A DNA stretch of 64,000 bases from the sequence record PV467749.1; one strand, written 5' to 3'. Within the stretch, counting starts at the first letter, position 1; each line of letters opens with the position of its first letter. The position numbers were made by a program, and so were the translations under genes. This document shows, piece by piece, positions 28,537 through 44,029 of the stretch. This DNA is from a phage. Under the pieces are notes generated by a model that was given only the letters and a program-made list of their open reading frames with translations, searched no databases and was not told the origin of the DNA.

Positions 28537-28947
28537 CTAATCGTGCCATTTAATAGGATACTCCGTTCCATTTATTGTATAAGATATAATCCATCCGTAA
28601 TGAATAGGATGATTTTTGTCTGAAACAGGAATAAAATATAAAGATGTACTAGGATTATAACTGAATAAATCGTTGTTACCAATTGTAAAATGTGATAACT
28701 CAATCTTCCTTGTACCTGTACTTGGACGAAGAACATTCTTAACACCGAAGACTGTACCTTGATATTTCTCGGAAAATTCAAACAATGCATCTGCAATTAA
28801 ATCACGAAACTCCGCATGTATGGTTTCAAAAAAATCTATATTACACGATGTTTTAATATCCTTGAACTCCTTATATAAAGAGCTTCTTGTATTCAAAAGA
28901 AATATTACTTTTTTAAGATCCTGAACTATTTCTGGATTCATATTCAT
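28537..28947 (-). CDS. hypothetical protein
   Basis: 136 aa; no family motif. Confidence 0.5.
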   Translation of the reverse strand: MNMNPEIVQDLKKVIFLLNTRSSLYKEFKDIKTSCNIDFFETIHAEFRDLIADALFEFSEKYQGTVFGVKNVLRPSTGTRKIELSHFTIGNNDLFSYNPSTSLYFIPVSDKNHPIHYGWIISYTINGTEYPIKWHD

Positions 28948-29188
28948 TTATCTCATTCTGTAACTTAAGCATCAAAATTTGCATATTAATTTTTTGTACA
29001 AGATGATTGAGAAATTTCTGTACTGTATCTTCTTGTTCTTTTGTACCAAGATAAAATAACATATTAAATTCAGATAATCTCAGAGCGAAATCTTCCTCTC
29101 CCCCTAGTAAACAAAAATCCCTGTACTTTGAAGCATACAAATAAGCATCTATCTTTTTATAATTCACTGTACTTCCTTTCATATGCAT
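28913..29188 (-). CDS. family B (LGTNYQE-motif) small protein, outlier copy
   Basis: 91 aa; motif YLGTKEQEDTV; start probably a downstream ATG. Confidence 0.5.
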   Translation of the reverse strand: MHMKGSTVNYKKIDAYLYASKYRDFCLLGGEEDFALRLSEFNMLFYLGTKEQEDTVQKFLNHLVQKINMQILMLKLQNEINEYESRNSSGS

Positions 29189-29871: not shown

Positions 29872-30089
29872 GAGTACTGGTACGTTGTCGTTAGGGTAGG
29901 GACCATGTTTGTAATGGGCATATTATTAACAATAACGGTAACAGGCATAAGAATCGTCTCTTCTCTACTCTGTCCTGTCCTTGTGCAATTCATCTTTTGC
30001 ATTTCATCGGACTCCATGAAATACAATACAAATGGTGCAATCCCAAGAACAATACACAAGACGATAAGGAAATTTAAAAAATTCAACAT
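29844..30089 (-). CDS. small membrane protein
   Basis: 81 aa; hydrophobic N-terminal stretch FLIVLCIVLGIAPFVLYF; own promoter upstream. Confidence 0.45.
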   Translation of the reverse strand: MLNFLNFLIVLCIVLGIAPFVLYFMESDEMQKMNCTRTGQSREETILMPVTVIVNNMPITNMVPTLTTTYQYSCTDGERWR

Positions 30090-30118
30090 AATTTTTACCC
30101 CATGATTAACGTACAGGT

Positions 30119-30147
30119 ACTATATCAGTAATGAAAAGTACTGTCAA
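30119..30147 (-). promoter_or_regulatory. sigma70-like promoter
   Basis: Minus-strand TTGACA, 17 bp spacer, TATAGT, upstream of 29844-30089. Confidence 0.45.
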
Positions 30148-30153
30148 GTACTG

Positions 30154-30369
30154 TCATTTGCATTTGGACTTTATTTGACACATCAACCCCCAAATTAAAT
30201 ATCGAACACTATCAGCTTGATAGTTTGTTCCTACTGTGTGTTTTAAGATTAACTCATCTTTCAGTACTGAACATTCTGCATTAGATATAGGAAGAGAATT
30301 AATTCTTTTAATTTCTGGTTGTAAAGTCCTGATAAGATTGGTGTAATCTTTGTATGATAATCTTTTCAT
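30154..30369 (-). CDS. family B (LGTNYQE-motif) small protein
   Basis: 71 aa; motif VGTNYQADSV. Confidence 0.5.
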   Translation of the reverse strand: MKRLSYKDYTNLIRTLQPEIKRINSLPISNAECSVLKDELILKHTVGTNYQADSVRYLIWGLMCQIKSKCK

Positions 30370-30372
30370 TGT

Positions 30373-30714
30373 TCAGTACTCAACGATGTGTTCTTCATAA
30401 CCATTAAACTCCGGTTTAGTTTCTTTCATTAGGACTACCATTTTATGTACTAATGGCATAGGAAATTCTAAATCCCATACTAATGATTCTTGAAAGTATT
30501 CTTCTTCAGATAAAGTACTTAAATCTTTAATATCAACGTGCTTGTATATTTTATTTTCGTAATTAAGAAATGATATATATAAATCATTAACATAAGAATC
30601 ATAAGTAATTGTGAATGGCTTACCCTTGTAGTCCATTACATCTTTACATAGACTGCATTTGATATATGTATGTTCTTCTGAACTGTATACATTGAGTTGT
30701 ATATTAGTTTTCAT
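30373..30714 (-). CDS. family A (FQ-motif) paralog
   Basis: 113 aa; motif DLSTLSEEEYFQESLVWDLEFPMPLVHKM, near-identical to next gene. Confidence 0.6.
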   Translation of the reverse strand: MKTNIQLNVYSSEEHTYIKCSLCKDVMDYKGKPFTITYDSYVNDLYISFLNYENKIYKHVDIKDLSTLSEEEYFQESLVWDLEFPMPLVHKMVVLMKETKPEFNGYEEHIVEY

Positions 30715-30728
30715 AGTTACCTTATATA

Positions 30729-31067
30729 TTAATACTCAATAATGTGATCTTCATAACCATTAGGTACAGGCTTAGTTTCTTTTATTAGTACTATCATCTT
30801 ATGTACTAATGGCATAGGAAACTCCAAATCCCATACTAATGATTCTTGAAAGTATTCCTCTTCAGATAAAGTACTTAAATCTTCAATGTCAATGTGTTCG
30901 TACATGTTATATTTGTAATCAGCAAAAGATATATAAAAACCTCTTGTATTATCATAAGTAAGTGCAAATGGCTTACCTTTGTAGTCCATTACAGAGTTAC
31001 ATGTATGGCATTTGATGTATGTACTTGCAAATGATTTATATACCTTGAGTTTTATATTAGTTTTCAT
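30729..31067 (-). CDS. family A (FQ-motif) paralog
   Basis: 112 aa; same motif as 30373-30714. Confidence 0.6.
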   Translation of the reverse strand: MKTNIKLKVYKSFASTYIKCHTCNSVMDYKGKPFALTYDNTRGFYISFADYKYNMYEHIDIEDLSTLSEEEYFQESLVWDLEFPMPLVHKMIVLIKETKPVPNGYEDHIIEY

Positions 31068-31341
31068 ATTTCTCTTTATTAGCTTGTTTAGATTGTTTGG
31101 TTTTATAGTGAATGAAATCTATTAATGTAATCAAGTACAACGTCAAATAGTACTCTTGTTGATCTGTACCTAATGATACAAAGAACTTGTGCTCATAGAT
31201 TAAAACCTGTTTCTCTTCAAATGGACATTTAATCCTCTGTATAGGCTTAAGTAAATGATAGTACTTATTAAATCTATGATACATTTCTAGTTCTGTCAGT
31301 ACTTTCATATTAAACATGTACTCCATTAGCTGTAGCATCAC
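31057..31341 (-). CDS. family B (LGTNYQE-motif) small protein
   Basis: 94 aa; motif SLGTDQQEYYL; start probably an internal ATG. Confidence 0.5.
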   Translation of the reverse strand: MMLQLMEYMFNMKVLTELEMYHRFNKYYHLLKPIQRIKCPFEEKQVLIYEHKFFVSLGTDQQEYYLTLYLITLIDFIHYKTKQSKQANKEKYEN

Positions 31342-31531
31342 GTAAAGCTCTCAAATACTTCTGTACTGCTTGCTCTTGATGATCTGTACCTAAAAGTATA
31401 TACATCCATAATTCACTGTAATGTACATCTTGTGTATAAGGGTTGTTGTAACTTTTTGATAATATAGCATCAAATTCAGATGCATGAACCCTTGCGAACT
31501 TAAGCATATCTTGTTGTGTTATGATTCTCAT
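31310..31531 (-). CDS. family B (LGTNYQE-motif) small protein
   Basis: 73 aa; motif LGTDHQEQAV. Confidence 0.55.
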   Translation of the reverse strand: MRIITQQDMLKFARVHASEFDAILSKSYNNPYTQDVHYSELWMYILLGTDHQEQAVQKYLRALRDATANGVHV

Positions 31532-31743
31532 ATCTTTTCCTGTACTATCTGCATAAGAATCTCTATGTGTGAATTAACAGTTCTCTCTTGATGCTGTGTT
31601 CCTAAGAGTGTCAGTACTATCATCTCTGAACGCAAAAGATTTTTTTCAAGTTCACTTATATCAGTTCTTGAATCAAGTGCCATATATTTGTGATTATTCT
31701 TCCTGAATAGTGCCAAGTACTCTTGATTTGATATTTCCTTCAT
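31528..31743 (-). CDS. family B (LGTNYQE-motif) small protein
   Basis: 71 aa; motif LGTQHQERTV; ATGA overlap. Confidence 0.55.
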   Translation of the reverse strand: MKEISNQEYLALFRKNNHKYMALDSRTDISELEKNLLRSEMIVLTLLGTQHQERTVNSHIEILMQIVQEKI

Positions 31744-31970
31744 AGTTTATTCCTGATGCCATTTAAAAGTGCTCTAATATGCTCCTGTACGAATTTGTAC
31801 TGACTGTCTGTTCCTAGAGTGAGTAGTAATCTTAAATCTGAACTTTTGATATGATATTCTAAATCATTATTTGATTCTTGCATCAGTTTCTTAAAGGATG
31901 AGAAGTTTGCAGCCATTAGTTCAATGTATTCTGCTGTTCCTAGTGGTTTGTGTATTGGCTGTTTGTGCAT
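31740..31970 (-). CDS. family B (LGTNYQE-motif) small protein
   Basis: 76 aa; motif LGTDSQYKFV. Confidence 0.55.
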   Translation of the reverse strand: MHKQPIHKPLGTAEYIELMAANFSSFKKLMQESNNDLEYHIKSSDLRLLLTLGTDSQYKFVQEHIRALLNGIRNKL

Positions 31971-32182
31971 TTTAATTTTATTACCCTTTTGAGTGTATTA
32001 ATGTAATTATACACATTGGCTTCTTGATAGTTAGTTCCCAGTGTAGCTTGAACATAGATTTCATTTAACTTAATAATTTTATCAGTATCTGGTAGTTTTG
32101 ATGTGTTAATGGCAAATAACTTCAAAAACAGTCCATTTAAGATTGTTAGGTATTCTTCGTCGGTAATGATTCGCATTTGCAT
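31940..32182 (-). CDS. family B (LGTNYQE-motif) small protein
   Basis: 80 aa; motif LGTNYQEANV; near-copy of next gene. Confidence 0.55.
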   Translation of the reverse strand: MQMRIITDEEYLTILNGLFLKLFAINTSKLPDTDKIIKLNEIYVQATLGTNYQEANVYNYINTLKRVIKLKCTNSQYTNH

Positions 32183-32388
32183 TGGATAAACCTTTTTAGT
32201 TCTTTGATGTAATCATTAATATTGCATTCTTGATAGTTAGTCCCTAGGGTAGCTTGAACATAGATTTCACTCATTAGAATATTTTTTTCTTCATCAGGTA
32301 AATCTGTGGTCTTTGCTATATACAATTTTAGAATTAAACTACTTAATAGTTCGTGGTATTCACTTGGTGAAAGGATTTTCATTTGCAT
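32146..32388 (-). CDS. family B (LGTNYQE-motif) small protein
   Basis: 80 aa; motif LGTNYQECNI. Confidence 0.55.
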   Translation of the reverse strand: MQMKILSPSEYHELLSSLILKLYIAKTTDLPDEEKNILMSEIYVQATLGTNYQECNINDYIKELKRFIQCKCESLPTKNT

Positions 32389-32594
32389 GTTCTCAGTACA
32401 GATTCTTTAAGTTCATCGATGTAGTCCTCAACGAATTGCTCTTGGAAGTTAGTTCCAACATATAAAAGAACTCTTAAATCTGCTCTAAGTAACTCTTTTT
32501 CATCATCATCTATATCAGACAATGTTATGTTTAAGAATTTACTTGTATTAAAGATTAACAATTCTGTTTGTTCACTGTGGCTTAAAATTTTCAT
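32379..32594 (-). CDS. family B (LGTNYQE-motif) small protein
   Basis: 71 aa; motif VGTNFQEQFV. Confidence 0.55.
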   Translation of the reverse strand: MKILSHSEQTELLIFNTSKFLNITLSDIDDDEKELLRADLRVLLYVGTNFQEQFVEDYIDELKESVLRTCK

Positions 32595-32802
32595 AATCTC
32601 TTTTTGCTTTCCTCGCCAAAAGGTACATATACGATTCTTCGTATTGTGCTTGGTAGTTTGTGTTTAAGAGTCGAAACAACTTCTGTTCTGCTAGAACGAG
32701 TTGCTTATCTTCATAACAACGATAGCGTATCAACTTTTTGTATTCGATGTTGATTACATCCATTACTATAAGCCCATGTTCATCATCTGTCAAGTGTTTC
32801 AT
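32572..32802 (-). CDS. family B (LGTNYQE-motif) small protein
   Basis: 76 aa; motif LNTNYQAQYE. Confidence 0.5.
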   Translation of the reverse strand: MKHLTDDEHGLIVMDVINIEYKKLIRYRCYEDKQLVLAEQKLFRLLNTNYQAQYEESYMYLLARKAKRDYENFKPQ

Positions 32803-33041
32803 GCATTTTTTCTTTTTCTTATATGTTTAGTTAAAAGGTATATTAGTTTTCTGATGTATTCTTCTTGGTAGTTTGTTCCTAGGAGTGCAAGAAGCTTTGC
32901 TTCAACTAGAGCTAATTGACGTTCTTCAAATGTGTGTTCCAGTATGTACTTTGGGTTTGATTTTTTAGAAATTGCACTATTAGTTTTCATTACAATCTTA
33001 TGATATTCATTAACTGTTAGGATTTTTAAATTCTTGAGCAT
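32799..33041 (-). CDS. family B (LGTNYQE-motif) small protein
   Basis: 80 aa; motif LGTNYQEEYI. Confidence 0.55.
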   Translation of the reverse strand: MLKNLKILTVNEYHKIVMKTNSAISKKSNPKYILEHTFEERQLALVEAKLLALLGTNYQEEYIRKLIYLLTKHIRKRKNA

Positions 33042-33267
33042 GTACCTTTTCCTTTATAGAGAATTTAAGATATCGAAGCATACTTTCAATGTAATACTCT
33101 TGTCTGTCAGTTCCAAGAAAGTACATGAGTTGAATGTATAAAACTTCTGCACTCCTTTCGGCAGGTGACTTGTTTGTGTCGTTTGGAAGTTGATTTGTAA
33201 GTTTTCTGGATTTAATTAATCGTTCTTTTAACTCATCGTCTGTTAAGTATTTCATTTCATTTTGCAT
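33010..33267 (-). CDS. family B (LGTNYQE-motif) small protein
   Basis: 85 aa; motif LGTDRQEYYI; near-copy of 33477-33713. Confidence 0.55.
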   Translation of the reverse strand: MQNEMKYLTDDELKERLIKSRKLTNQLPNDTNKSPAERSAEVLYIQLMYFLGTDRQEYYIESMLRYLKFSIKEKVHAQEFKNPNS

Positions 33268-33487
33268 TTACTTTTTCCATAATACTCATTACAAGATGTT
33301 CAATCATATTTTGAACCATAAATTCTTGTTTATCAGTTCCAAGAACGTATTGTAGCTTCTGAAACAATACATTCGCAGACATTTCATATATTGATTGATT
33401 TGGAACGAACTTAAGAGTAATGTTATTGGCTTTTAACATCTTCTCTTGAAATTCTTCATTCGTTAAGTATATCATTTCACTTTGCAT
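33257..33487 (-). CDS. family B (LGTNYQE-motif) small protein
   Basis: 76 aa; motif LGTDKQEFMV. Confidence 0.55.
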   Translation of the reverse strand: MQSEMIYLTNEEFQEKMLKANNITLKFVPNQSIYEMSANVLFQKLQYVLGTDKQEFMVQNMIEHLVMSIMEKVNAK

Positions 33488-33713
33488 TTATTTTTTCCAT
33501 AATAGTGATTTTAAGATATTTAATTATACGTTCAACGTGATACTCTTGCCTATCAGTTCCAAGAAGGTATGGTAATGACTGGAATAAAACTTCTGCACTC
33601 CTTTCCGCTGGGGTTTGGTTTGGGTTGTGTGGAAGATATTTTGTAAGTTTTTTGGATTTATCTAGTCTTTCTGTTAACTCATCATGTGTTAAGTATATCA
33701 TTTCATTTTGCAT
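33477..33713 (-). CDS. family B (LGTNYQE-motif) small protein
   Basis: 78 aa; motif LGTDRQEYHV. Confidence 0.55.
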   Translation of the reverse strand: MQNEMIYLTHDELTERLDKSKKLTKYLPHNPNQTPAERSAEVLFQSLPYLLGTDRQEYHVERIIKYLKITIMEKINAK

Positions 33714-33940
33714 TTAATGTTCCTTACGTAAATTGTCTGGATTAAAAGTGAAATCCATTTTTCTACATATTGGTTTTGATACTGTGTACCTAAGAGGAAC
33801 TGCATTTTAAACTCTGCTTCAAGTTCATATCTCTTTTCTATAGAAAAGCTTAAATGACCATATTCCTTATCGTATCGTCTCATAGCTTCCCCAATTCTAT
33901 CAAATCTTTCTGCTAATCTGATGTTATTCACAATATTCAT
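33698..33940 (-). CDS. family B (LGTNYQE-motif) small protein
   Basis: 80 aa; motif LGTQYQNQYV. Confidence 0.55.
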   Translation of the reverse strand: MNIVNNIRLAERFDRIGEAMRRYDKEYGHLSFSIEKRYELEAEFKMQFLLGTQYQNQYVEKWISLLIQTIYVRNIKCKMK

Positions 33941-34194
33941 CGATCAGTACACCTCAGTGGTTGGGTCATTTGATAAAAGTACAGCTTACCTTTGATTTCC
34001 AATAGTAACTCCGCGATTAAGCGATTTACTTCTGGCTCTTGATAGTTTGTTCCTAAGAATACACCCATCTTTAACTCACGCATCATAATCATTTTCTTAC
34101 TGTGTTGAATTTCTGGGTTGTGATAGATTGTATTACGTTTGTGTGTAATTTTTGTCATACGCTCGGTATATTCATCTTTACTTAAATTGATCAT
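33937..34194 (-). CDS. family B (LGTNYQE-motif) small protein
   Basis: 85 aa; motif LGTNYQEPEV. Confidence 0.55.
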   Translation of the reverse strand: MINLSKDEYTERMTKITHKRNTIYHNPEIQHSKKMIMMRELKMGVFLGTNYQEPEVNRLIAELLLEIKGKLYFYQMTQPLRCTDR

Positions 34195-34427
34195 TTTTTA
34201 TTCTCCAAAGCATCGCATTTATTTTCGATACAATTCATTAGTTCTCTAAGATAGTTTTTTACCTTACCTGCCTGATAGTTCGTCCCCAGGAAGTTGCATA
34301 ACTCTGCTTCTATTATTTTGATTCTTCTGTTATCAGGTTTCAATTTTTTGTTATTGAAGATTTGAATCCTTATATCCCTTGATGCATTTAAACGTTTTTG
34401 ATAATCATGGTAAGATAAATGAATCAT
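34191..34427 (-). CDS. family B (LGTNYQE-motif) small protein
   Basis: 78 aa; motif LGTNYQAGKV. Confidence 0.55.
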   Translation of the reverse strand: MIHLSYHDYQKRLNASRDIRIQIFNNKKLKPDNRRIKIIEAELCNFLGTNYQAGKVKNYLRELMNCIENKCDALENKK

Positions 34428-34642
34428 TTACTTTGTATCTCTCTCTTGAGGGCATCAATTAACAACAGTACAGCATTCTCTTGATAGTTTGTTCCTAAGA
34501 CTGAAAGCATCTTAATCTCATTTACTACAATCAACTTCTTTGAGCGTTCAATAATGTTACTATTATAAACGGCGTTACGTGCTGGATAAGTTTTTGCAAG
34601 ACGATCATAATATTCATCTTTACTTAAATTAATCATTTGCAT
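34424..34642 (-). CDS. family B (LGTNYQE-motif) small protein
   Basis: 72 aa; motif LGTNYQENAV. Confidence 0.55.
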   Translation of the reverse strand: MQMINLSKDEYYDRLAKTYPARNAVYNSNIIERSKKLIVVNEIKMLSVLGTNYQENAVLLLIDALKREIQSK

Positions 34643-34851
34643 TTACTTTTGACCTCTTTCAGTAGAGCATCAACCCATATGTCTACATACATTTGTTGAT
34701 AGTTTGTGTCTAATAGTGCACCTACATATAGTTCAGCTACCATTGCGTGCTTTAGGTCAACAGGGATGCTCTTATCAGATTGAATCTTTACCCTTCTGCT
34801 TCCACATGTTTTCAGAAGCTTAACATATTCGTAACCTATTAATTTTCTCAT
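34633..34851 (-). CDS. family B (LGTNYQE-motif) small protein
   Basis: 72 aa; motif LDTNYQQMYV. Confidence 0.55.
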   Translation of the reverse strand: MRKLIGYEYVKLLKTCGSRRVKIQSDKSIPVDLKHAMVAELYVGALLDTNYQQMYVDIWVDALLKEVKSKCK

Positions 34852-35063
34852 TCTCTGGATAACACCTTGTTGCGTAAGGCACTTAACAATACGTCAGTGT
34901 AGATGTTTTGATAGTTTGTTCCTACGAAAGCACCCAACTTCATTTCAGCTATTATAACACATTTGTCCTCTTGTGCAATAGACTTGTCTAAAGAAATACT
35001 AACAACTTTCCTTCTTATAGCTTGTAACCTCCAATGATACTGAAACTCATTTAGTGTTATCAT
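34848..35063 (-). CDS. family B (LGTNYQE-motif) small protein
   Basis: 71 aa; motif VGTNYQNIYT. Confidence 0.55.
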   Translation of the reverse strand: MITLNEFQYHWRLQAIRRKVVSISLDKSIAQEDKCVIIAEMKLGAFVGTNYQNIYTDVLLSALRNKVLSRE

Positions 35064-35298
35064 TATCTCGTCTCCATATCTCGGTTCTAATGTGTTGACA
35101 TTGTGCTTCGATGAACATATCTATTGATTTGGCAATTGCGTTTTTATCTGTGCCAGTCATCAGTACAAGCATCTCGGCCTCACAGTGAAGTAAACGCATG
35201 ATATCATAGGGTAATATTCCAGATACCGTGTCATAGTGTTTCTGTGCCAGTGTCTGTAATAGTTTACAATACATTTTGTGATTTAGTCTGTGTCGCAT
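35047..35298 (-). CDS. family B-like small protein (divergent)
   Basis: 83 aa; degenerate motif TGTDKNAIAK. Confidence 0.45.
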   Translation of the reverse strand: MRHRLNHKMYCKLLQTLAQKHYDTVSGILPYDIMRLLHCEAEMLVLMTGTDKNAIAKSIDMFIEAQCQHIRTEIWRRDNDNTK

Positions 35299-35558
35299 TG
35301 TTTATTCCATTCTTTTTTTTTGGCCTTGATGGTTTTATATTGGATTTGGTTTCTTAATGCTGATAAGTATCGTTGAATGAACAGATCTTGATAGTTTGTT
35401 CCAATGAATTTCATAAGATAAAGTTCACCGTTGATAACATCCACTTCAGGTGCACCATATAAGGCATTGTTTTTTCTAAGGGCATGGATTAAAGAGAATA
35501 GGGCAGTTTGATACTCAACTCCTGATAAAATCTTCATGTTTTGTGAGCAAATAATCAT
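35283..35558 (-). CDS. family B (LGTNYQE-motif) small protein
   Basis: 91 aa; motif IGTNYQDLFI. Confidence 0.5.
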   Translation of the reverse strand: MIICSQNMKILSGVEYQTALFSLIHALRKNNALYGAPEVDVINGELYLMKFIGTNYQDLFIQRYLSALRNQIQYKTIKAKKKEWNKQCDTD

Positions 35559-35772
35559 CTAGTTTATCCTGTATAACATTCGTTAATTGTTCGATATATT
35601 CTGTGCAAAACTTATCTTGATATTGAGTCCCCATAAAGTACAGCAACCATAGCTCATTAACTTTAGCTCGCATTTGGTTCCATGTAAGGCTGGGGTCATC
35701 GTAGACTATCCTTGCTATAGGGGTTAGTTTACGGACTATAGTTTCATATTCATCTAGTGTTAAGTGTTTCAT
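35515..35772 (-). CDS. family B (LGTNYQE-motif) small protein
   Basis: 85 aa; motif MGTQYQDKFC. Confidence 0.5.
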   Translation of the reverse strand: MKHLTLDEYETIVRKLTPIARIVYDDPSLTWNQMRAKVNELWLLYFMGTQYQDKFCTEYIEQLTNVIQDKLDDYLLTKHEDFIRS

Positions 35773-35987
35773 TTACATTTGTCCCTTATTAGATCAGTGA
35801 GGGCAACTATGTGTGCAACAACATACTCTTCCTGAAAGTTCGTCCCCAGTACAGCCATCATGCGTATATCGGTGGTGTTTATCCTGTGTTCCCTTACACA
35901 TAAACCTTCTGTGTGAGGAAGTGTAAAATATTTGTTTATTGCAGCAACGATAATTTTATTCTTCTCGGAGTTACTTAAATGTTTCAT
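35769..35987 (-). CDS. family B (LGTNYQE-motif) small protein
   Basis: 72 aa; motif LGTNFQEEYV. Confidence 0.55.
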   Translation of the reverse strand: MKHLSNSEKNKIIVAAINKYFTLPHTEGLCVREHRINTTDIRMMAVLGTNFQEEYVVAHIVALTDLIRDKCK

Positions 35988-36196
35988 AGTTTACTCCTGA
36001 TATAATTCTGAAGTGCAATTAAGTATTCCCCTACATAATACACCTGAAAGTCTGTATCAAGGAATGCACCCATAAGTAAATCTTTTTCTAATACCCTTGA
36101 TAAGTTAAGGTCTGCATTTGAAAGGTATATAAGTAAGATTTCACCCTGTGCGGAATTGAAACGTTTCTTATATTCTTCTGGTGTTAAAAAAATCAT
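35984..36196 (-). CDS. family B (LGTNYQE-motif) small protein
   Basis: 70 aa; motif LDTDFQVYYV; near-copy of next gene. Confidence 0.55.
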   Translation of the reverse strand: MIFLTPEEYKKRFNSAQGEILLIYLSNADLNLSRVLEKDLLMGAFLDTDFQVYYVGEYLIALQNYIRSKL

Positions 36197-36408
36197 AATT
36201 TGCTCCTGATATATTTCTCAAGAGATGACAAATACTTTTCCTCATAATACTTCTGATAGTCTGTTCCTAAGAATGCACCCAAAAGTATTTCATTTTCCAA
36301 TACCTCGGCTAAGTTTAAATCAGAAGTCTCTTCGTATATTATGAGGATTTCAAGTTGTCTGGCAGCGATGCGTTCAGTATATTGATATGAGTTTTCTATA
36401 ATAATCAT
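36193..36408 (-). CDS. family B (LGTNYQE-motif) small protein
   Basis: 71 aa; motif LGTDYQKYYE. Confidence 0.55.
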   Translation of the reverse strand: MIIIENSYQYTERIAARQLEILIIYEETSDLNLAEVLENEILLGAFLGTDYQKYYEEKYLSSLEKYIRSKL

Positions 36409-36614
36409 AATTTACTCTTTATATCTTGAATTAAAAATCGAATCCATTCTTCAACATAATCTTCCTGATGGTTTGTGTTCAGTACAGCCAACATGCGGAT
36501 CTCTGCTCTTGCAACTTCAATTTCAGTTTTAGGAAGGTCTTTGCTGATATCCACCATTAAGTCCATGTATTTCAAGATAAGACCGTATGATTGGGTTCGT
36601 GTTATAGTTTTCAT
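36405..36614 (-). CDS. family B (LGTNYQE-motif) small protein
   Basis: 69 aa; motif LNTNHQEDYV. Confidence 0.55.
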   Translation of the reverse strand: MKTITRTQSYGLILKYMDLMVDISKDLPKTEIEVARAEIRMLAVLNTNHQEDYVEEWIRFLIQDIKSKL

Positions 36615-36811
36615 TGTTTCCTCGTGGACAATATTTTATTTTTCAATGTATCCATATATTGAATCACCCATCTTTCCTGATAGTTAGTTCCCAAAGTAAT
36701 CAAAAGGTATAACTCCATTCGTTCTACGTGTGTGTCTGTATTATAAATCTTTGTGAAGTTTTTACGTAACAGTTCTTGATAATCTTCTTTATTTAAAATA
36801 CGCATTTTCAT
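36611..36811 (-). CDS. family B (LGTNYQE-motif) small protein
   Basis: 66 aa; motif LGTNYQERWV. Confidence 0.55.
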   Translation of the reverse strand: MKMRILNKEDYQELLRKNFTKIYNTDTHVERMELYLLITLGTNYQERWVIQYMDTLKNKILSTRKQ

Positions 36812-37005
36812 AGTCTACCTTTTATGTCCCTTCGTAATTCTTGTAAGTATAGTTCGATATACTTTTCTTGATAGTTAGTTCCTATGAAAAGTTTCATAAC
36901 CAATTCACGCTTATATGCAATACCACGGATATGTGACATATGTAGGATATATGCCATGTTGGATATGAGTGTGTGGTTGTGCTCTTCTTGAGTTAAAATA
37001 CGCAT
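36808..37005 (-). CDS. family B (LGTNYQE-motif) small protein, first gene of array
   Basis: 65 aa; motif IGTNYQEKYI. Confidence 0.55.
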   Translation of the reverse strand: MRILTQEEHNHTLISNMAYILHMSHIRGIAYKRELVMKLFIGTNYQEKYIELYLQELRRDIKGRL

Positions 37006-37254
37006 AGGGACTCCATTAAAAATAATATCAATCCAATAATATACGATTCATATAAAAAGTCAATAACATTTTATAAGTAATACCCCTTTATCGAAGTCGC
37101 TAAGGTTACCCGCCCTTTAGCCCCCTACGCATTTTGCCATAGTCCAATCCCTTTTTATTCATAAAAGTCAAGGGATTACCTATGCATTTTTTTAACGCTG
37201 AAGTTTAAAAATGCCTTGACTTTTTTATGATTCAGTACTAAATCCTTTTACGCA

Positions 37255-37464
37255 TTAATCCTTCGTTACGCTTACGATTATCTGTGTATCCCCATAGTCC
37301 TGCCATACTTCCACGCCAGCCGTCGCCCTGGTTAGTCGTGCTGTCATCTGCTTAATGGTCTTAGGCTTTAGTGGAACCTGTTGCAGTACTGTACGCATAG
37401 CACTATCGACGTTATCATGTACGCCTGCAATAGTGCCTAGGACGCTGTATACTGTATAGAACAT
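37255..37464 (-). CDS. hypothetical small protein
   Basis: 69 aa; AGGAGG SD; intergenic hairpin AGGCCGC..GCGGCCT upstream. Confidence 0.5.
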   Translation of the reverse strand: MFYTVYSVLGTIAGVHDNVDSAMRTVLQQVPLKPKTIKQMTARLTRATAGVEVWQDYGDTQIIVSVTKD

Positions 37465-38438: not shown

Positions 38439-38560
38439 TACTTTTTTATTAATAGTTTTCACCCCACCAGCAGATAGTTACTCACCGTTATTAACTATAT
38501 ATTTTGGATACACCTATGCACCCTGTGGGCTAGTTTTTGTCTATGCGTATATAATAGCAA

Positions 38561-38584
38561 AGGGACTGACCGGAGTCAATCCCT
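38561..38584. terminator. bidirectional terminator inside repeated intergenic cassette
   Basis: Hairpin AGGGACTGAC-cgga-GTCAATCCCT with T7 on plus and U-rich tail on minus; 3' of gene 38602-38802. Confidence 0.5.
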
Positions 38585-38601
38585 TTTTTTATTCTTTTTT
38601 G

Positions 38602-38802: not shown

Positions 38803-38892
38803 AATGTTTTACTCCAAACTATTGGCGGGAGAACTATTCCCCCGCTCTATGTAAAACATTATACATTACTGGTTAGTACTGTCAAATAGTTT

Positions 38893-39150
38893 TTATGAAA
38901 TATCTTCGATGTAGTCGGCCCATTTCATTTTTTCAGTACTGTCAATGGCGACCGGATTATTTGGATCAAACCATTCACCATCACCGCAATACATACCCAC
39001 GGCTACGGTTTTATAGCCATCCTGGGCAGTACACCACGACATTGCACGATAGATATGGCCTTTAACTGGTTGCAGTACTGGTAACGTTTTATGGTCTTCT
39101 ACGTAGGCCATAGCTTGTGGATTTACCCGATATTGTGTGAACTGATCCAT
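38893..39150 (-). CDS. hypothetical protein
   Basis: 85 aa. Confidence 0.5.
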   Translation of the reverse strand: MDQFTQYRVNPQAMAYVEDHKTLPVLQPVKGHIYRAMSWCTAQDGYKTVAVGMYCGDGEWFDPNNPVAIDSTEKMKWADYIEDIS

Positions 39151-39226
39151 TATGTTTCCCCTTGTAGTTAGTAAAGTTATTACATCAGTACTATCAAGCT
39201 ATGTCAATAGTACTGAAATAAAACTT

Positions 39227-39451
39227 TTAGATTAGATTATTGAGGCCGTCAATGGTAGACTCACCTTCTTCTTTCTCCCATTGTCGGTAGTACTTCCATG
39301 CTTCATGATAGGTGGCGATTAGTTCATCTTTTTGATCCTGGTTACATGCCAGTACTGAATCACGGTGAGCGGTGTTATAGATAGAATCGAATGATTTCTT
39401 CTCTTCTGCCAGGTTAGCTACTTCCCGCATCAGTTCATCAAAGTTAGCCAT
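39227..39451 (-). CDS. hypothetical small protein
   Basis: 74 aa; promoter and hairpin upstream. Confidence 0.5.
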   Translation of the reverse strand: MANFDELMREVANLAEEKKSFDSIYNTAHRDSVLACNQDQKDELIATYHEAWKYYRQWEKEEGESTIDGLNNLI

Positions 39452-39518
39452 TTTATTACTCCTTTTAGTGGGGGAGGATATCTCCCCCTATGCAAAACAT
39501 TATACTTTGTTTTAGTTA

Positions 39519-39782
39519 TTATGCAAGTACTTTTTTCATATAAACATTAAATTCTACACCGCCGTAACCTTCCACGATGATATGTTTTGCGTTATCACGT
39601 TTGCACATAGTGAAACCGTTGTTGATGTGTTCTGAATTTTCCAGGGCGACATCACCGATAGCGGCACATACAGCACTAATAACAGTATTCCGCAAAGTAC
39701 TGGTATCATTGGCGGTCATAGTAGTTTGCAGTACTACGTTGTCGTATACGTGTGCATTGATAGTGATTTCGATAGTGTTCAT
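39519..39782 (-). CDS. hypothetical protein
   Basis: 87 aa from ATG 39780-39782 (AGGAG SD); track N-terminus MFYIERGKWF is promoter and hairpin sequence. Confidence 0.55.
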   Translation of the reverse strand: MNTIEITINAHVYDNVVLQTTMTANDTSTLRNTVISAVCAAIGDVALENSEHINNGFTMCKRDNAKHIIVEGYGGVEFNVYMKKVLA

Positions 39783-39869
39783 GTTGTATCTCCTGGACTT
39801 GAGGGGAAACCATTTCCCCCTCTCGATATAAAACATTATACGTTAATCTAACTACAATGCAAGTACTTT

Positions 39870-40061
39870 TTAAATTTTATTTCCGATATAGTCCGGCATG
39901 TTCTTTTCAGTCATACGCTTTGCTAATGTCTGCATATGGCTTATAGCGTTCAAGGTGTCTTCCTCCAGGGATGAATCGAGATAATCAGGATCATTCTTCA
40001 CCTTGCAATGATTATGATAGCGTAGTACTGCCAGTACTTTTTTAACTTCTTCAACTGTCAT
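39870..40061 (-). CDS. hypothetical small protein
   Basis: 63 aa; ATGA overlap with upstream gene. Confidence 0.5.
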   Translation of the reverse strand: MTVEEVKKVLAVLRYHNHCKVKNDPDYLDSSLEEDTLNAISHMQTLAKRMTEKNMPDYIGNKI

Positions 40062-40330
40062 AATAAGTACTCCACTTCGTTAGCTTTCAGGTTAGTATCA
40101 ATCATCAATGGTTTTTTGTAGTTCACAAAACGATTAGTTTTTTCGATAGCAAATCCCATATAATCCAGCTTACTAACAGTACATTCATTCTTAAAAACTT
40201 CTTTCGCTGCATCGATGGCTGATTGCATGGATAACCGACCATCTAAATTAATGTTTCCAAATGATCCACCAGCAGAAGTAGGATTACCGTTCATATCTTT
40301 AATGATCATAGTAGCGGAGTAGCTGGACAT
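40058..40330 (-). CDS. hypothetical protein
   Basis: 90 aa; PeSL cassette upstream. Confidence 0.55.
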   Translation of the reverse strand: MSSYSATMIIKDMNGNPTSAGGSFGNINLDGRLSMQSAIDAAKEVFKNECTVSKLDYMGFAIEKTNRFVNYKKPLMIDTNLKANEVEYLL

Positions 40331-40352
40331 AATTTTGTTTCCTTTTATTGGT

Positions 40353-40411
40353 GGGGAGAACTATTCTCCCCTTGATGTAAACTATTATACAGTACTGATA
40401 TACTTTGTCAA
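40353..40411 (-). promoter_or_regulatory. promoter plus stem-loop cassette (PeSL-like)
   Basis: TTGACA 40406-40411, 16 bp spacer, TATAAT 40384-40389, then hairpin GGGGAGA-actat-TCTCCCC 40353-40371. Confidence 0.55.
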
Positions 40412-40417
40412 ATACTT

Positions 40418-40825
40418 TTATTCGCCCATATAGATTAGATTATCATCGCCTACATAGGGATCGCAAACGTTGATTTCTTCGCAGTACTTAGTGAATATAT
40501 CATCATAGTGACCGATATCACGATCCCAAAAACCAGTGCCGTGACCTTCGCGAGTAAGAAAGAGATCATGACCTGCATGACTATAAGTATAATCAGGATT
40601 ATGGTGTTTTTGTACTGTTTCCATATCTTCACCATGTACAGCAAGGAAACGTGAACATGCAATCACTGCCGCTTGATGGGCTTGCTCTGATAATTCATAA
40701 TCTTCCAGGTATTCGCCGTTCTCATTGTGTACTGTACTGAATTGCATAGCTTCAATGTAACCAGCGACCATTGCAGCATGATTTTTATCGTTGGCGATGG
40801 ACCGAGCTTGATTAGTAGTAGTCAT
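40418..40825 (-). CDS. hypothetical protein
   Basis: 135 aa; His-rich motif GHDLFLTREGHGTGFWDRDIGHYDD. Confidence 0.55.
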   Translation of the reverse strand: MTTTNQARSIANDKNHAAMVAGYIEAMQFSTVHNENGEYLEDYELSEQAHQAAVIACSRFLAVHGEDMETVQKHHNPDYTYSHAGHDLFLTREGHGTGFWDRDIGHYDDIFTKYCEEINVCDPYVGDDNLIYMGE

Positions 40826-40846
40826 GATTTTATTCCTTTTAGTATC

Positions 40847-40905
40847 GGGGAGAACTATTCTCCCCTTGATGTAAACTATTATACAGTACTGGTATACTTT
40901 GTCAA
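40847..40905 (-). promoter_or_regulatory. promoter plus stem-loop cassette (PeSL-like)
   Basis: Identical architecture to 40353-40411. Confidence 0.55.
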
Positions 40906-40908
40906 TAC

Positions 40909-41130
40909 TTAATTACGTTTAAAATGATATGTACCTTTATCATCCTGTACGCCCCATACTGATTTACCATTTAAACCAGTGAAGCCGGATTGTAATTCAA
41001 TATGGAAACCATTATTATCAACTACAAAAACTTTTTTATTTTCATCCCGATAGCATTGATATTCTTCACCTGCTTTAAATGCTGCATCATTCAGAAGATT
41101 TGAAGCGTGAACGCAGGTCATAGTAGTCAT
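40909..41130 (-). CDS. hypothetical small protein
   Basis: 73 aa from ATG 41128-41130; track ORF extended through promoter. Confidence 0.5.
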   Translation of the reverse strand: MTTMTCVHASNLLNDAAFKAGEEYQCYRDENKKVFVVDNNGFHIELQSGFTGLNGKSVWGVQDDKGTYHFKRN

Positions 41131-41317
41131 CGTCTTGATTCCTTTTAGTACTAGGGAGAACCATTTCCCCCTCTCGATATAAAACATTATACGCTCATTG
41201 AGATAGTTTGCAAGTACTTTTTTAAAAATAGTTTTCAGTACTGAATACTTATATAATAGATACACTTCCGCACCCTATGGGTCAGTGAGTTATCTCTCAA
41301 TGGATATATAATAGCAA

Positions 41318-41341
41318 AGGGACTGACCGGAGTCAATCCCT
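41318..41341. terminator. bidirectional terminator inside repeated intergenic cassette
   Basis: Same hairpin as 38561-38584, followed by T6; 3' of kinase-like gene. Confidence 0.5.
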
Positions 41342-41354
41342 TTTTTAATCTTTT

Positions 41355-41939
41355 TTATCGTGTTACCTTACTTGCTGCCACATCACGCTTTTTATAGTAC
41401 TGATTCCAGATATTGCAGGTTAAACCGTAATCAAGTACTTTAATAAGGCCATTACGATCCTGGCCGATATTCTGTTTTCTGATATCTCTTATCGTTAGTG
41501 TTGATAATGTATCATCGACGTGTTGTAGTGCATCAGCAAAGCGGTGCTGGCGTTCGATTGCATTACGTTTAATATTGTACTTTAATTCATTGCACGCGTT
41601 TACGTGCTTCACACTACCTTTGCTTGCAGTACTCAACCGATCCATAACGATAAACATATTATCAGGATCGCATAAATGCATATGCACCTTTGCAAAGTAC
41701 TGTTTCAACTGAGGGCGGTCATAGTCTAAAAAATTCCATACCTTACATTCAGTTTCATTTTGTTCTACACCCGCATCACAATTCGCGACCTTAATCACTA
41801 ACCGATCATTTAAAGCGAAAACTATACGGGAAGAACCAGCACCGATGATCTCCAGGCCAGCTAACCGACAAGCTGAAAGGATCTCTTTGTTGGTTTCCAT
41901 TTCTGACAGTGTACGGATGAATTTAGTATAATTACGCAT
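41355..41939 (-). CDS. protein kinase-like protein (minimal ePK/RIO/KdoK-like fold)
   Basis: 194 aa from ATG 41937-41939 (AAGGAG SD); motifs in order IIGAGSSRIVF, VIKV, RDIRKQN, VLDYG. Confidence 0.5.
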   Translation of the reverse strand: MRNYTKFIRTLSEMETNKEILSACRLAGLEIIGAGSSRIVFALNDRLVIKVANCDAGVEQNETECKVWNFLDYDRPQLKQYFAKVHMHLCDPDNMFIVMDRLSTASKGSVKHVNACNELKYNIKRNAIERQHRFADALQHVDDTLSTLTIRDIRKQNIGQDRNGLIKVLDYGLTCNIWNQYYKKRDVAASKVTR

Positions 41940-41970
41940 TGCATGTTCTCCTTGAGTTAATGAAACTATA

Positions 41971-42213
41971 TTACAGTACTTTACTATCAATGGCAACTAC
42001 TTTTTTAACATTAACGGCGTGGATCACTTCCTTCGTGTTTTTAGTACTGAATACTTTCGCCGCTCCTTGTTCGACCGTGATACGATAGCGACCATTAACA
42101 TCAACCATATTAATAAAGTCCGGCGTGCTGAATGGTGTTGTTTTACATTTGAGTACTGTTAACAGTTCCACCAGCGATGTAGTTTCTTTGATACGTTTTT
42201 CTAAAGTAATCAT
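41971..42213 (-). CDS. hypothetical protein
   Basis: 80 aa from ATG 42211-42213; upstream leader duplicated at 42490-42546. Confidence 0.5.
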   Translation of the reverse strand: MITLEKRIKETTSLVELLTVLKCKTTPFSTPDFINMVDVNGRYRITVEQGAAKVFSTKNTKEVIHAVNVKKVVAIDSKVL

Positions 42214-42270
42214 TTTGTTTCCCCCGTGTTGGTATGTACATATAGTACTAAAACATTTGAGTACTGTCAA

Positions 42271-42489
42271 TTAGATAATATTATATTTCTTAAAATAAAA
42301 TGCGTCCTGTGTTGGTTGATACTCAATTCCATTGCCGTTATTGACTTCAACTAATAAACCTTTGTCAATAAGTTTTTTAATAGTACGATACCCTTGTTGA
42401 AAATTGGTAAAATGTGAATCATTACGAAAGGTATAACCGTGCTTAACTGCTTCATCAATAGTTTTCTTTTCGATTTTAGATAATTTCAT
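42271..42489 (-). CDS. hypothetical small protein
   Basis: 72 aa from ATG 42487-42489; promoter TTGACA-17-TACTAT upstream. Confidence 0.5.
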   Translation of the reverse strand: MKLSKIEKKTIDEAVKHGYTFRNDSHFTNFQQGYRTIKKLIDKGLLVEVNNGNGIEYQPTQDAFYFKKYNII

Positions 42490-42542
42490 TTTGTTTCTCC
42501 CGTGTTGGTATGTGTACATAGTACTAAAACATTTGAGTACTG

Positions 42543-42797
42543 TCAACGTGATATTAGTTTTATTTTCTTATTGTATTGTTGATGCTCATAAAGGTTTATC
42601 TTTCCTGTGTTCTCGATTACTATCCTGTTGTTAGTGTCCACGTCGATTACACGCAGTTTCCCGTTGCTTAACTTCCTAGGTAATAGGTTACCATTAATAA
42701 ACTCATTAGCAAGCTGTACGGCCTTTGTGATGATTCTCTGAGGTGCTTTATAGTGTACCCGTAAGATGTTATCTTTATATAGTTGAACCTTAATCAT
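42543..42797 (-). CDS. hypothetical protein
   Basis: 84 aa. Confidence 0.5.
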   Translation of the reverse strand: MIKVQLYKDNILRVHYKAPQRIITKAVQLANEFINGNLLPRKLSNGKLRVIDVDTNNRIVIENTGKINLYEHQQYNKKIKLISR

Positions 42798-42804
42798 TTT
42801 GTTT

Positions 42805-42836
42805 GTCCGATAAAAAAGGCGGGAACTGATCCCGCC
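42805..42836 (-). terminator. intrinsic terminator
   Basis: Hairpin GGCGGGA-actga-TCCCGCC 42818-42836 with U-run on minus RNA; 3' of gene 42859-43254. Confidence 0.55.
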
Positions 42837-42858
42837 GTGTTGTTAGTACTGCAAGTTA

Positions 42859-43254
42859 TTAGATAACCTGGCGGCGTTTACTGTATACTGTTACACGATT
42901 ACCCTTACGATCATGTCGGATCTCTTTCTGGTTGCGAATCAGTTCACTTGGACGCTTAAGGTTTGCCAGGTGATCCGCGTGAGTCCATGCGGTGTGGTTT
43001 ACCTGTACTTTGATATCAGAATCAGCGATAAACTCATCTTGTGCGTCAAGTATTGCCGCCAGCATATCCGCTCGTTTTAGTTCTGCTGCTGTCAGTACTG
43101 GCTCAGGTGAATTCACAATATCAGAGATTTCTTTGAACTGTACGGCCCAGCGTTGACCTTTCGGTGCATCTTTGCCCATGTCTTTAAATGCTGCTCCTTC
43201 CTCGCGTGCAACAATACGGGCAGCTTCACGGGTAGCGTAGAATTTAGTAATCAT
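42859..43254 (-). CDS. hypothetical protein, paralog of 54841-55107
   Basis: 131 aa; shared N-terminal YFATRE.AR..AR..GA.FKDMG and C-terminal DRKGNRVTVY. Confidence 0.55.
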   Translation of the reverse strand: MITKFYATREAARIVAREEGAAFKDMGKDAPKGQRWAVQFKEISDIVNSPEPVLTAAELKRADMLAAILDAQDEFIADSDIKVQVNHTAWTHADHLANLKRPSELIRNQKEIRHDRKGNRVTVYSKRRQVI

Positions 43255-43349
43255 GGTATACATCCTATTAGTTAAGTTAGTACTACAAGTTAGAGTCTAT
43301 TATAAAGTACTATCTGGACAGTGTCAAATAGTACTTTAAATGGATTCTA

Positions 43350-43673
43350 TTACATGTCTTTCTTACGTTTTACATCGTGGTAGCGAACTGTAATTTCTTT
43401 GTTGATCTCTTCCTCGATGCGGTGAATAACTTTTTCTTTCGGGTTGAAACCTATAACGGTTTCTTTAATGATCTCCAAGCCCGTGTATTCGCCTTGTGTA
43501 CCGTAACCGTATGTAAAGGTTTCGTGTCCCAGGTCTTCCCAGCGATCACCAATCAATGCGGACACGTAGCAGGAGTGGTAAGTATTGCCGTGGCTATCAG
43601 TCCACCGATTAACTTTAATGTCAAAGGAGGTTACAATTTTCAGTTCTACTTTCTGGGTAAGGATCATAGCCAT
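43350..43673 (-). CDS. hypothetical protein, paralog of 49861-50184
   Basis: 107 aa; shared RWTDS.GNTYHSC.VS and TYGY; C-terminal VKRKKD. Confidence 0.55.
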   Translation of the reverse strand: MAMILTQKVELKIVTSFDIKVNRWTDSHGNTYHSCYVSALIGDRWEDLGHETFTYGYGTQGEYTGLEIIKETVIGFNPKEKVIHRIEEEINKEITVRYHDVKRKKDM

Positions 43674-43696
43674 TTTTATTTCTCTCTCTTTGTTAG

Positions 43697-43757
43697 GAGG
43701 GGAACCATTCCCCTCGCTTGATGTAAACTATTATACAGTACTAAGATACTTTGTCAA
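43697..43757 (-). promoter_or_regulatory. promoter plus stem-loop cassette (PeSL-like)
   Basis: TTGACA 43752-43757, TATAAT 43730-43735, hairpin GAGGGGAA-cca-TTCCCCTC 43697-43715. Confidence 0.55.
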
Positions 43758-43760
43758 TAC

Positions 43761-43943: not shown

Positions 43944-43966
43944 TTTTATTTCTCTCTTTTAGTTAG

Positions 43967-44026
43967 GAGGGGAACCATTCCCCCTCTCGATGTAAACTAT
44001 TATACAGTACTAAGATACTTTGTCAA
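43967..44026 (-). promoter_or_regulatory. promoter plus stem-loop cassette (PeSL-like)
   Basis: Near-duplicate of 43697-43757. Confidence 0.55.
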
Positions 44027-44029
44027 TAC

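Follow-up and report, generated by a model that had tools for sequence, protein, structure and literature searches.

A tandem family of 27 small paralogous genes beside the terminal repeat of an Asteriusvirus jumbo coliphage

The 64,000-nucleotide stretch of phage sequence record PV467749.1 analyzed here (hereafter the window) carries on its minus strand, at positions 31057-37005, 27 contiguous open reading frames (ORFs) coding for paralogous proteins of 65-94 amino acids (aa). We call this run array B and its members family B; four further copies lie scattered in an adjoining array of larger paralogs, array A. Family B is confined to a single lineage of jumbo phages and evidently arose by tandem duplication. 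Our preferred reading, offered tentatively, is that array B forms an early operon of small, individually specialized proteins that would bind host factors and neutralize or redirect them, serving host takeover, anti-defence or toxin neutralization.

The 27 ORFs are free of gaps, collinear in alignment and share the consensus M-K-x-L-[ST]-x-x-E-Y ... L-G-T-N-Y-Q-E-x-x-V-x-x-Y-I-x-x-L. A leave-one-out profile hidden Markov model (HMM) recovered 26 of them at E <= 1.4e-10. The remaining gene, 35047-35298, reads TGTDKNAIAKS at the core, has lost YQE and reached only E 1.4 in the same procedure; however, hhalign aligns its ortholog group, conserved in seven genomes, to the rest of the family (probability 77%, E 2e-5, 67 columns), and the gene is therefore a divergent member and no intruder. 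Searching the 984 six-frame ORFs of the window with an HMM made from the 27 array genes alone, we found the four outliers at E 1e-14, 2e-13, 2e-7 and 6e-6, the next-best ORF scoring 0.14, which brings the family to 31 copies. A preliminary description of this DNA had listed the same 27 consecutive paralogs, with a conserved N-terminus and an LGTNYQE core, and the same four scattered copies, and on both counts it was right. The copies are given below with the evidence for each; phrog_4148 is a catalogue entry discussed later.

36808-37005, minus strand: family-B gene 1 (65 aa), first after the terminal repeat (HMM/alignment; phrog_4148 E 9e-15)
36611-36811, minus strand: gene 2 (66 aa) (HMM/alignment; phrog_4148)
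36405-36614, minus strand: gene 3 (69 aa) (HMM/alignment)
36193-36408, minus strand: gene 4 (71 aa), 50% identity to gene 5 (HMM/alignment)
35984-36196, minus strand: gene 5 (70 aa) (HMM/alignment)
35769-35987, minus strand: gene 6 (72 aa), chimera relative to phage PBECO4 (HMM; PBECO4 comparison)
35515-35772, minus strand: gene 7 (85 aa) (HMM/alignment)
35283-35558, minus strand: gene 8 (91 aa from the first ATG; later start probable) (HMM/alignment)
35047-35298, minus strand: gene 9 (83 aa), divergent, without the YQE core (hhalign probability 77%, E 2e-5)
34848-35063, minus strand: gene 10 (71 aa) (HMM/alignment)
34633-34851, minus strand: gene 11 (72 aa) (HMM/alignment)
34424-34642, minus strand: gene 12 (72 aa), protein modelled with AlphaFold2 (HMM; phrog_4148; pLDDT 97.3)
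34191-34427, minus strand: gene 13 (78 aa) (HMM/alignment)
33937-34194, minus strand: gene 14 (85 aa) (HMM; phrog_4148; tblastn)
33698-33940, minus strand: gene 15 (80 aa) (HMM/alignment)
33477-33713, minus strand: gene 16 (78 aa), recent triplet with genes 17 and 18 (HMM; paralog identity)
33257-33487, minus strand: gene 17 (76 aa) (HMM; paralog identity)
33010-33267, minus strand: gene 18 (85 aa) (HMM; paralog identity)
32799-33041, minus strand: gene 19 (80 aa) (HMM; phrog_4148)
32572-32802, minus strand: gene 20 (76 aa) (HMM/alignment)
32379-32594, minus strand: gene 21 (71 aa) (HMM/alignment)
32146-32388, minus strand: gene 22 (80 aa) (HMM; phrog_4148)
31940-32182, minus strand: gene 23 (80 aa) (HMM/alignment)
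31740-31970, minus strand: gene 24 (76 aa) (HMM/alignment)
31528-31743, minus strand: gene 25 (71 aa) (HMM; phrog_4148)
31310-31531, minus strand: gene 26 (73 aa) (HMM/alignment)
31057-31341, minus strand: gene 27 (94 aa by GTG; later ATG likely), last contiguous copy (HMM/alignment)
30154-30369, minus strand: outlier copy, two array-A genes between it and array B (HMM E 1e-14; phrog_4148 E 9e-14)
28913-29188, minus strand: outlier copy (91 aa), weak member (HMM E 2e-7)
17014-17241, minus strand: outlier copy (75 aa, TTG start), weak member (HMM E 6e-6)
16845-17036, minus strand: outlier copy (63 aa) (HMM E 2e-13)

Neighbouring genes overlap at all 26 junctions of the array. The overlap had been described as one of 4 nucleotides (nt) throughout, but this is true of only 13 junctions, which are of the ATGA type when the first ATG is taken as the start, or of 16 once a downstream in-frame ATG is accepted as the start; at the remaining junctions the overlap is 10-44 nt. 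The translational coupling proposed from this arrangement still seems probable for such a tightly overlapping array. A Shine-Dalgarno (SD) match of at least 4 nt precedes 18 of the 27 starts, compared with 16% of background positions, and several of these SDs fall in the codons for a conserved I-R-S-K-L at the C-terminus of the preceding gene product. In one metagenomic protein (P0001, ENA contig, 154 aa) the orthologs of 32799-33041 and 32572-32802 are fused by read-through, an example of how loss of the ATGA stop/start joins adjacent paralogs as a two-domain protein.

The window comes from an Asteriusvirus jumbo coliphage of the 121Q/PBECO4 group. Its positions 30000-37300 match 36 phage records at 84-97% nt identity, all of them jumbo myoviruses of E. 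coli or Salmonella, of ~310-386 kb, belonging to the genus Asteriusvirus (121Q/PBECO4 group). Across array B the closest relative is fEgEco12, in which the protein of one member is 100% identical. The genome of fEgEco12 has a direct terminal repeat (DTR) of 20,993 bp, confirmed by PhageTerm and restriction digests (PMC13070987). We placed the DTR on the window by mapping fEgEco12, and the annotation of vB_Ec-M-J led to the same boundary: the left genome end maps to window position 57,573 and the repeat ends at 37,103. As the first family-B ATG is at 37,005, array B starts 98 bp inside the unique sequence. The 98-bp gap between the repeat and the first gene contains a sigma-70-like promoter (37063-37036) and a GGAG SD.

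37103-57573, no strand assigned: direct terminal repeat, given as context (mapped from fEgEco12 and vB_Ec-M-J; PMC13070987)
37036-37063, minus strand: sigma-70-like promoter TTGACT-16-TATTAT (10/12), ~30 nt upstream of the first ATG and followed by the GGAG SD (consensus match)

Array B belongs to an arm of the genome that is transcribed in one direction and is rich in consensus host promoters. Over the whole window, sites agreeing with the sigma-70 consensus at 11/12 positions or better occur 27 times on the coding (minus) strand and five times on the other strand. Twelve perfect TTGACA-16/17-TATAAT sites lie on the minus strand inside the terminal repeat (38,858-57,208), a striking density of ideal host promoters. 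Because array B has a promoter of its own and ~20 kb of upstream sequence with these 12 perfect host-consensus promoters, it is most likely transcribed early by the host RNA polymerase. Published data on related phages support such a timing for this arm. In phage PA5oct, RNA-seq showed that DTR genes are strongly transcribed at 5 min, and rifampicin blocks infection, so that the host RNA polymerase is needed (PMC7318152); in phage CBB, RpoD-like promoters clustered on short ORFs beside the repeat were interpreted as marking early host-takeover genes (PMC5259590). The virion proteome of phAPEC6 contains no protein from the array-B part of the genome (PMC7247149, Table 1), which indicates that family-B proteins are non-virion. 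In location and signals array B is like an early host-takeover module of the SPO1 / T5 pre-early type: it adjoins the terminal repeat and has host-type promoters and strong ribosome-binding sites, with the particularity that it lies beside the repeat and not inside it.

Adjacent paralogs of the array are on average 30.8% identical versus ~24% for distant ones, and in 5000 permutations the adjacent mean was never reached (p < 2e-4). The number of copies in the main array differs among the eight genomes compared: 27 in the window, 28 in fEgEco12, 26 in vB_Ec-M-J, 29 in PBECO4, 25 plus a fragment in SD-1_S14, 23 in 121Q, 20 in A4 and ~17 in JNE01 (range ~17-29). When the copies of these genomes were clustered at >= 62% identity, 56 ortholog groups were obtained, which are collinear and differ by insertions and deletions of single units. 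One gene of the window, 35769-35987, is a recombinant: through 'AHIVAL' it corresponds to the PBECO4 paralog 6558-6783 (96% identity), and from there on its tail is that of the PBECO4 paralog 6996-7152. We interpret it as a unit deletion by recombination between family-B paralogs. A candidate breakpoint at the LGTNYQ core was rejected, as the sole clear chimera breaks at the shared 'HIVAL' segment, in helix 4. Like-oriented paralogs with closer neighbours, variation in copy number and recombinant units are all features of tandem multigene families.

Larger changes appear to have taken place as well. In JNE01 (OR670491, array at 7465-12868) the array proteins have 45% aa identity to those of the window (12 reciprocal-best-hit pairs), while the flanking genes have 89%, and only two of 18 ortholog groups are common with the other phages. 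Turkey5 (PQ471516) likewise carries an almost entirely different set of family-B genes. In these two phages the entire array seems to have been exchanged for another, or it may represent a second array haplotype. A divergent uncultured relative (ENA ERZ14189038 NODE_1, 101 kb, array region 7088-13547) has the same layout, with genes of the terminal-repeat type 40-85% identical and with A and B genes more interleaved than in the window. Since the layout is kept in such a divergent genome, both the A and the B expansions predate the cultured Asteriusvirus species.

For the estimation of coding constraint, orthologs were paired between the window and seven relatives. The ratio of nonsynonymous to synonymous substitution rates (dN/dS, or omega) is 0.28-0.41 for family B versus 0.24-0.40 for neighbouring genes. 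Summed over 31 ortholog groups, the overall omega is 0.42 and the maximum for any alignment column 0.84; no column among these orthologs has omega > 1, the mark of positive selection. AlphaFold2, run on gene 12 with an alignment of only 29 paralogs, returned a model with a predicted local distance difference test score (pLDDT) of 97.3 and a predicted template modelling score (pTM) of 0.83. It consists of four helices (residues 8-17, 19-26, 33-47 and 54-71) and a beta-bridge connecting residue 4 to residue 51, the Thr of LGTNYQE. From these substitution patterns and this model, we regard the family-B products as real folded proteins under purifying selection. That the ORFs might be chance ones in a repetitive AT-rich array is hardly credible: all are annotated merely as 'hypothetical protein' and we found no proteomic evidence for them, but dN/dS well below 1, the SD enrichment, the very confident fold and the maintenance of a single frame over 27 units in 36 genomes argue for translation.

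The same data bear on the possibility that array B is mostly ballast, that is, that duplications were tolerated or favoured for filling an enlarged capsid and the copies have little or redundant function. Hua et al. (2017) proposed a genome-expansion ratchet for the array of 121Q (PMC5646251), and a copy number that goes from ~17 to 29 with no obvious consequence, a fairly relaxed dN/dS of 0.3-0.4 and the lack of an assignable function would all agree with it. Nevertheless, the paralogs are old (~25% identity) and each can still be recognized as an ortholog, at its place in the order, in most of the genus; omega is below 1 in every column, start signals are kept, and the array persists even in the relative with no more than 40-85% identity in its DTR genes. 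Pure filler would be expected to decay to pseudogenes, and we consider this explanation unlikely.

Family-B paralogs have a mean pairwise identity of 24.9% and isoelectric points (pI) from 4.5 to 9.9; orthologs are 71-93% identical between most phages. Conservation across the family is limited to the N-terminal and core motifs, which the modelled bridge joins, and to a hydrophobic stripe of helix 4, V-x-x-Y-I-x-x-L-x-x-x-I. The N-terminal ([ST]-x-x-E) and core (T-x-x-Q-E) motifs look like helix N-capping boxes, a resemblance noted by eye and not a tool result, and the conserved residues look structural in the model. The core is also conserved in an unusual way at the DNA level. AAC is the codon for the Asn of LGTNYQE in 16/16 window copies and 108/114 copies over the eight genomes, as opposed to 40% AAC for the other Asn residues of the same genes, and the core Tyr is TAT rather than its alternative in a ratio of 96:7. 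The core DNA TTA GGA ACA AAC TAT CAA recurs at 65-83% identity over 40 nt in 13 copies (e.g., 34039-34078 and 34481-34520), in contrast with the protein identity of only ~25% between paralogs. Selection for decoding accuracy, local gene conversion or a signal at the nucleotide level are possible causes of the AAC bias.

In the databases, family B corresponds to phrog_4148 of PHROGs v4 ('unknown function'), which was matched by 10 of 10 tested members at E 1e-11 to 9e-26 over profile positions ~1-72 of 74 and also by divergent metagenomic members. This is the same family, present in the catalogue as an entry without function, array description, structure or context. No match to Pfam or NCBIfam reached cut-off; over 75 members, 46 different families each matched one or two members at E >= 0.0025, which we regard as noise. 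The label 'DUF3885' that UniRef gives to one member was discarded, as the Pfam scan does not reproduce it. PADLOC-DB gave no real match (four unrelated models each matched one member, best E 5e-4), the PDB sequence profiles contained no relative, and fold searches with the AlphaFold2 model returned no structural analogue, including colicin-type four-helix immunity proteins (Im7/Im9-like, a distorted bundle of ~85 aa), for which a fold match was not obtained. No helix-turn-helix folds were among the fold matches.

Thus, profile searches recovered no well-characterized domain family, and structure prediction gave a confident small helical bundle without an analogue. The preliminary description knew of no described family with this signature, which is correct as far as characterized families in Pfam, NCBIfam, PADLOC, the PDB and fold space are concerned, but not entirely so otherwise. 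Because of phrog_4148 and a mention by Hua et al. (2017), family B is not wholly undescribed. These authors devoted one sentence to a tandem array of very similar genes in 121Q, and did not specify which array (PMC5646251); the statement was repeated in the phAPEC6 paper (PMC7247149). It concerns the same phenomenon, without family signature, position or function; 121Q has ~23 contiguous B copies, besides a longer family-A array in the lineage and RCC1-like paralogs. Our literature search found no paper on the signature, fold, position, promoter context, dynamics or function of family B.

The taxonomic range of the family is narrow. An exhaustive hmmsearch of 1.84 billion cluster representatives returned only 84 clusters, all short, and word-indexed searches returned only ~350-kb contigs or fragments of them, many mislabelled as 'Escherichia coli'. 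A second search for wider homologs, with a 75-sequence profile, again gave only contigs of Asteriusvirus size. Of 50,697 phage records, exactly 36 had a tblastn match, and every one of them belongs to the Asteriusvirus group. The family was also absent from the 5,426 complete E. coli genomes and the 72,556 plasmids searched. Across these collections, family B behaves as an orphan restricted to the Asteriusvirus-type lineage. In a 269-aa protein (P0173) of phages EC.P1 (PQ657772, 338002-338808) and UB (MH383160), a family-B domain is fused to an extra C-terminal domain of ~180 aa. Among the phages searched, this domain has relatives only in Klebsiella jumbo phages of the RaK2/K64-1 type, as hypothetical proteins with 40% identity. 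The records annotate P0173 as two genes, and either a genuine fusion or a frameshift may explain it. A scan of IMG/VR with P0173 found nothing, and neither P0173 nor P0171 (121 aa) offered an informative domain as a domain-fusion clue.

Array A extends on the minus strand from ~3331 to 31067 and has ~43 paralogs of 100-210 aa with the motif E-E-x-[YF]-F-Q-x-S, in fuller form E-E-x-[YF]-F-Q-x-S-[LT] with an invariant F-Q. Its proteins match only PHROGs of unknown function, and an AlphaFold2 model of a short member has five beta strands and two helices, with the FQ motif within a helix (pLDDT 75). Several copies of array A, such as those with EEMYFQGS (13456-13938) and EEGYFQGS (17730-18185), resemble canonical protease sites of the tobacco etch virus (TEV)/3C type (E-x-x-Y-x-Q|G/S). 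Arrays A and B adjoin each other on one strand and have in common tight packing, the same taxonomic restriction, interleaved B copies and a [YF]-Q core; nevertheless, they are not homologous. The idea that family B is a truncated C-terminal module of family A, based on the shared [YF]-Q core, was rejected with an hhalign probability of 0.2% against both full-length and C-terminal alignments of A, and predicted structure also speaks against it, B being all-helical and A a beta-sheet plus helices. The four scattered B copies had been taken as a sign of recombination between the arrays. They are no evidence of a recent event of this kind, given the unrelatedness of the families and the fact that the four copies keep the same relative positions in fEgEco12, vB_Ec-M-J, PBECO4, 121Q and A4; on account of these positions they are better seen as old insertions or duplications, with no sign of recent exchange between A and B.

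Returning to the early-operon reading, the events might be put together as follows. Tandem duplication produced a lineage-specific family of non-virion genes, each coding for a helical-bundle protein of ~70 aa. The 27 overlapping genes form one operon, 98 bp past the DTR, which has its own sigma-70-type promoter and would be translated by coupling. All but the conserved motifs and a face of helix 4 has diverged, net charge included. Each paralog would be kept for its own partner, and variable host factors would be neutralized or redirected; an inhibitor or antitoxin-like role, raised in the preliminary description, would suit this context. The repertoire would be remodelled by gain and loss of units and by recombination between paralogs. 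Early timing, binding activity and targets are what we infer here, and several points weigh against the proposal. The searches, which included no profile library of anti-defence proteins, revealed no likeness to known proteins of anti-defence, antitoxin or host-takeover function. Selection is purifying in every column and nowhere diversifying, which gives weaker support to an ongoing arms race than accelerated evolution would. The promoter of array B itself matches the consensus at only 10 of 12 positions, the total of promoter-like sites in that 12-kb region is not above that of shuffled sequences, and the transcriptome data were obtained with a distantly related phage infecting another host.

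Other functions can be conceived for small proteins of this kind. They could be nucleic-acid-binding or transcription-modulating factors, acting on the host RNA polymerase or on the switch from early to middle phage genes, and not defence antagonists. Small helical proteins within an early region would suit such a role, about half of the copies are basic (pI 8.5-9.9) and two of 75 members have marginal matches to HTH_26 at E 0.05; we consider it improbable. Alternatively, the pole of the protein formed by the N-terminal strand and the LGTNYQE cap could be an adaptor surface by which all copies dock on one common partner (for example, a host protease or an enzyme of the phage), with variable helix faces recruiting different substrates. 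Large eukaryotic viruses would offer a parallel in their F-box, BTB and ankyrin expansions. The only polar residues under strong conservation, E8, Y9, T, N, Y, Q and E, cluster in the two motifs joined by the modelled bridge, and the use of AAC for the core Asn in all 16 copies suggests an unusually strong constraint. However, motifs that look like plain N-capping boxes (S/T-x-x-E/Q, again in our own reading) may be purely structural, and this alternative seems to us very doubtful. A bolder version of the early-operon reading, also improbable in our judgement, sees array B as a library of binders: a rigid mini-scaffold with a conserved docking pole and hypervariable helix faces, in which at least 56 ortholog groups would each recognize a different host defence or housekeeping protein, possibly passing it to a common partner, with cassettes swapped, as in JNE01, to retune host range. 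If true, this would be a prokaryotic-virus counterpart of the giant-virus F-box/BTB/ankyrin expansions and a rich source of new anti-defence proteins.

Array B is best placed with the tandem multigene families, each peculiar to one lineage, that occur in large DNA viruses. The terminal multigene families and 'genomic accordions' of large eukaryotic DNA viruses are close parallels. The MGF110/360 genes of African swine fever virus (ASFV), the amplification of K3L in poxviruses and that of anti-defence genes in T-even phages share with it like-oriented tandem paralogs near a genome end, copy-number differences and chimeras, and their role is to counter host immunity. Those amplifications are recent and near-identical, or of shown immune function, whereas the copies of array B are ancient (~25% identity) and individually conserved. 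The Bacillus phage SPO1 has a host-takeover module of ~24 mostly unrelated small early genes inside its terminal redundancy, with strong host-sigma promoters and strong ribosome-binding sites, whose products subvert the host. It resembles array B in that small genes are clustered within or beside a long terminal repeat and have host-type promoters; on the other hand, array B is a single family repeated 27 times just outside the repeat. For phage T6, segmental amplification of anti-defence loci has been reported (PMC13096335). Among jumbo phages, Iyer et al. (2021) described a zinc-ribbon expansion of ~35 copies in Bacillus phage G (PMC7824862), which is a lineage-specific expansion like array B but involves an unrelated family.

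Families A and B together account in the window for ~74 paralogous genes and ~34 kb, about a tenth of a genome of ~350-380 kb, in a region that is probably the first expressed after infection. The main value of array B would lie in screening and in testing ideas on genome expansion. If the copies are specialized antagonists, they offer a panel of dozens of small, stable and easily expressed proteins to be screened on E. coli defence systems, and their variable repertoire could help explain host-range differences among Asteriusvirus phages proposed for therapy. If they are dispensable, the array is a test case for the growth of jumbo genomes by tandem duplication filling a larger capsid.

Some other features of the window deserve mention. 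No tRNAs or non-coding RNAs were found in it. The whole ~20.5-kb direct terminal repeat is present once (37,103-57,573), and past the mapped left genome end (57,574-64,000) both GC skew and gene strand flip. This last segment has an RCC1-like gene on the plus strand (62570-63724); its counterpart in phAPEC6 is virion-associated and labelled 'DNA condensation'. Given the single DTR copy, the flips beyond 57,573 and the RCC1-like gene, the source assembly is probably a collapsed or permuted form of a linear genome. Weak hints below threshold were obtained for the terminal-repeat genes 41355-41996, 51016-51513 and 42543-42797 (minus strand), among them a protein kinase domain (E 0.004) and a papain-fold toxin (E 0.007), and an 85%-identical ortholog of 42543-42797 (ENA ERZ14189038 NODE_1, 3046-3297) carries a precomputed ParE_like Pfam label. 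Kinase, papain-fold toxin and ParE_like proteins would suit host manipulation; none of the hints is significant. Finally, two GC-rich hairpins on the minus strand, at 38559-38586 and ~37146-37178, have a -35-like TTGACT in the stem ('AAAGGGATTGACT...GTCCCTTT' and 'aatcccttgact...aagggatt'). Both lie between genes of the repeat, where they overlap with promoter-like sites, and they may be combined terminator/promoter elements or elements bound by a regulator.

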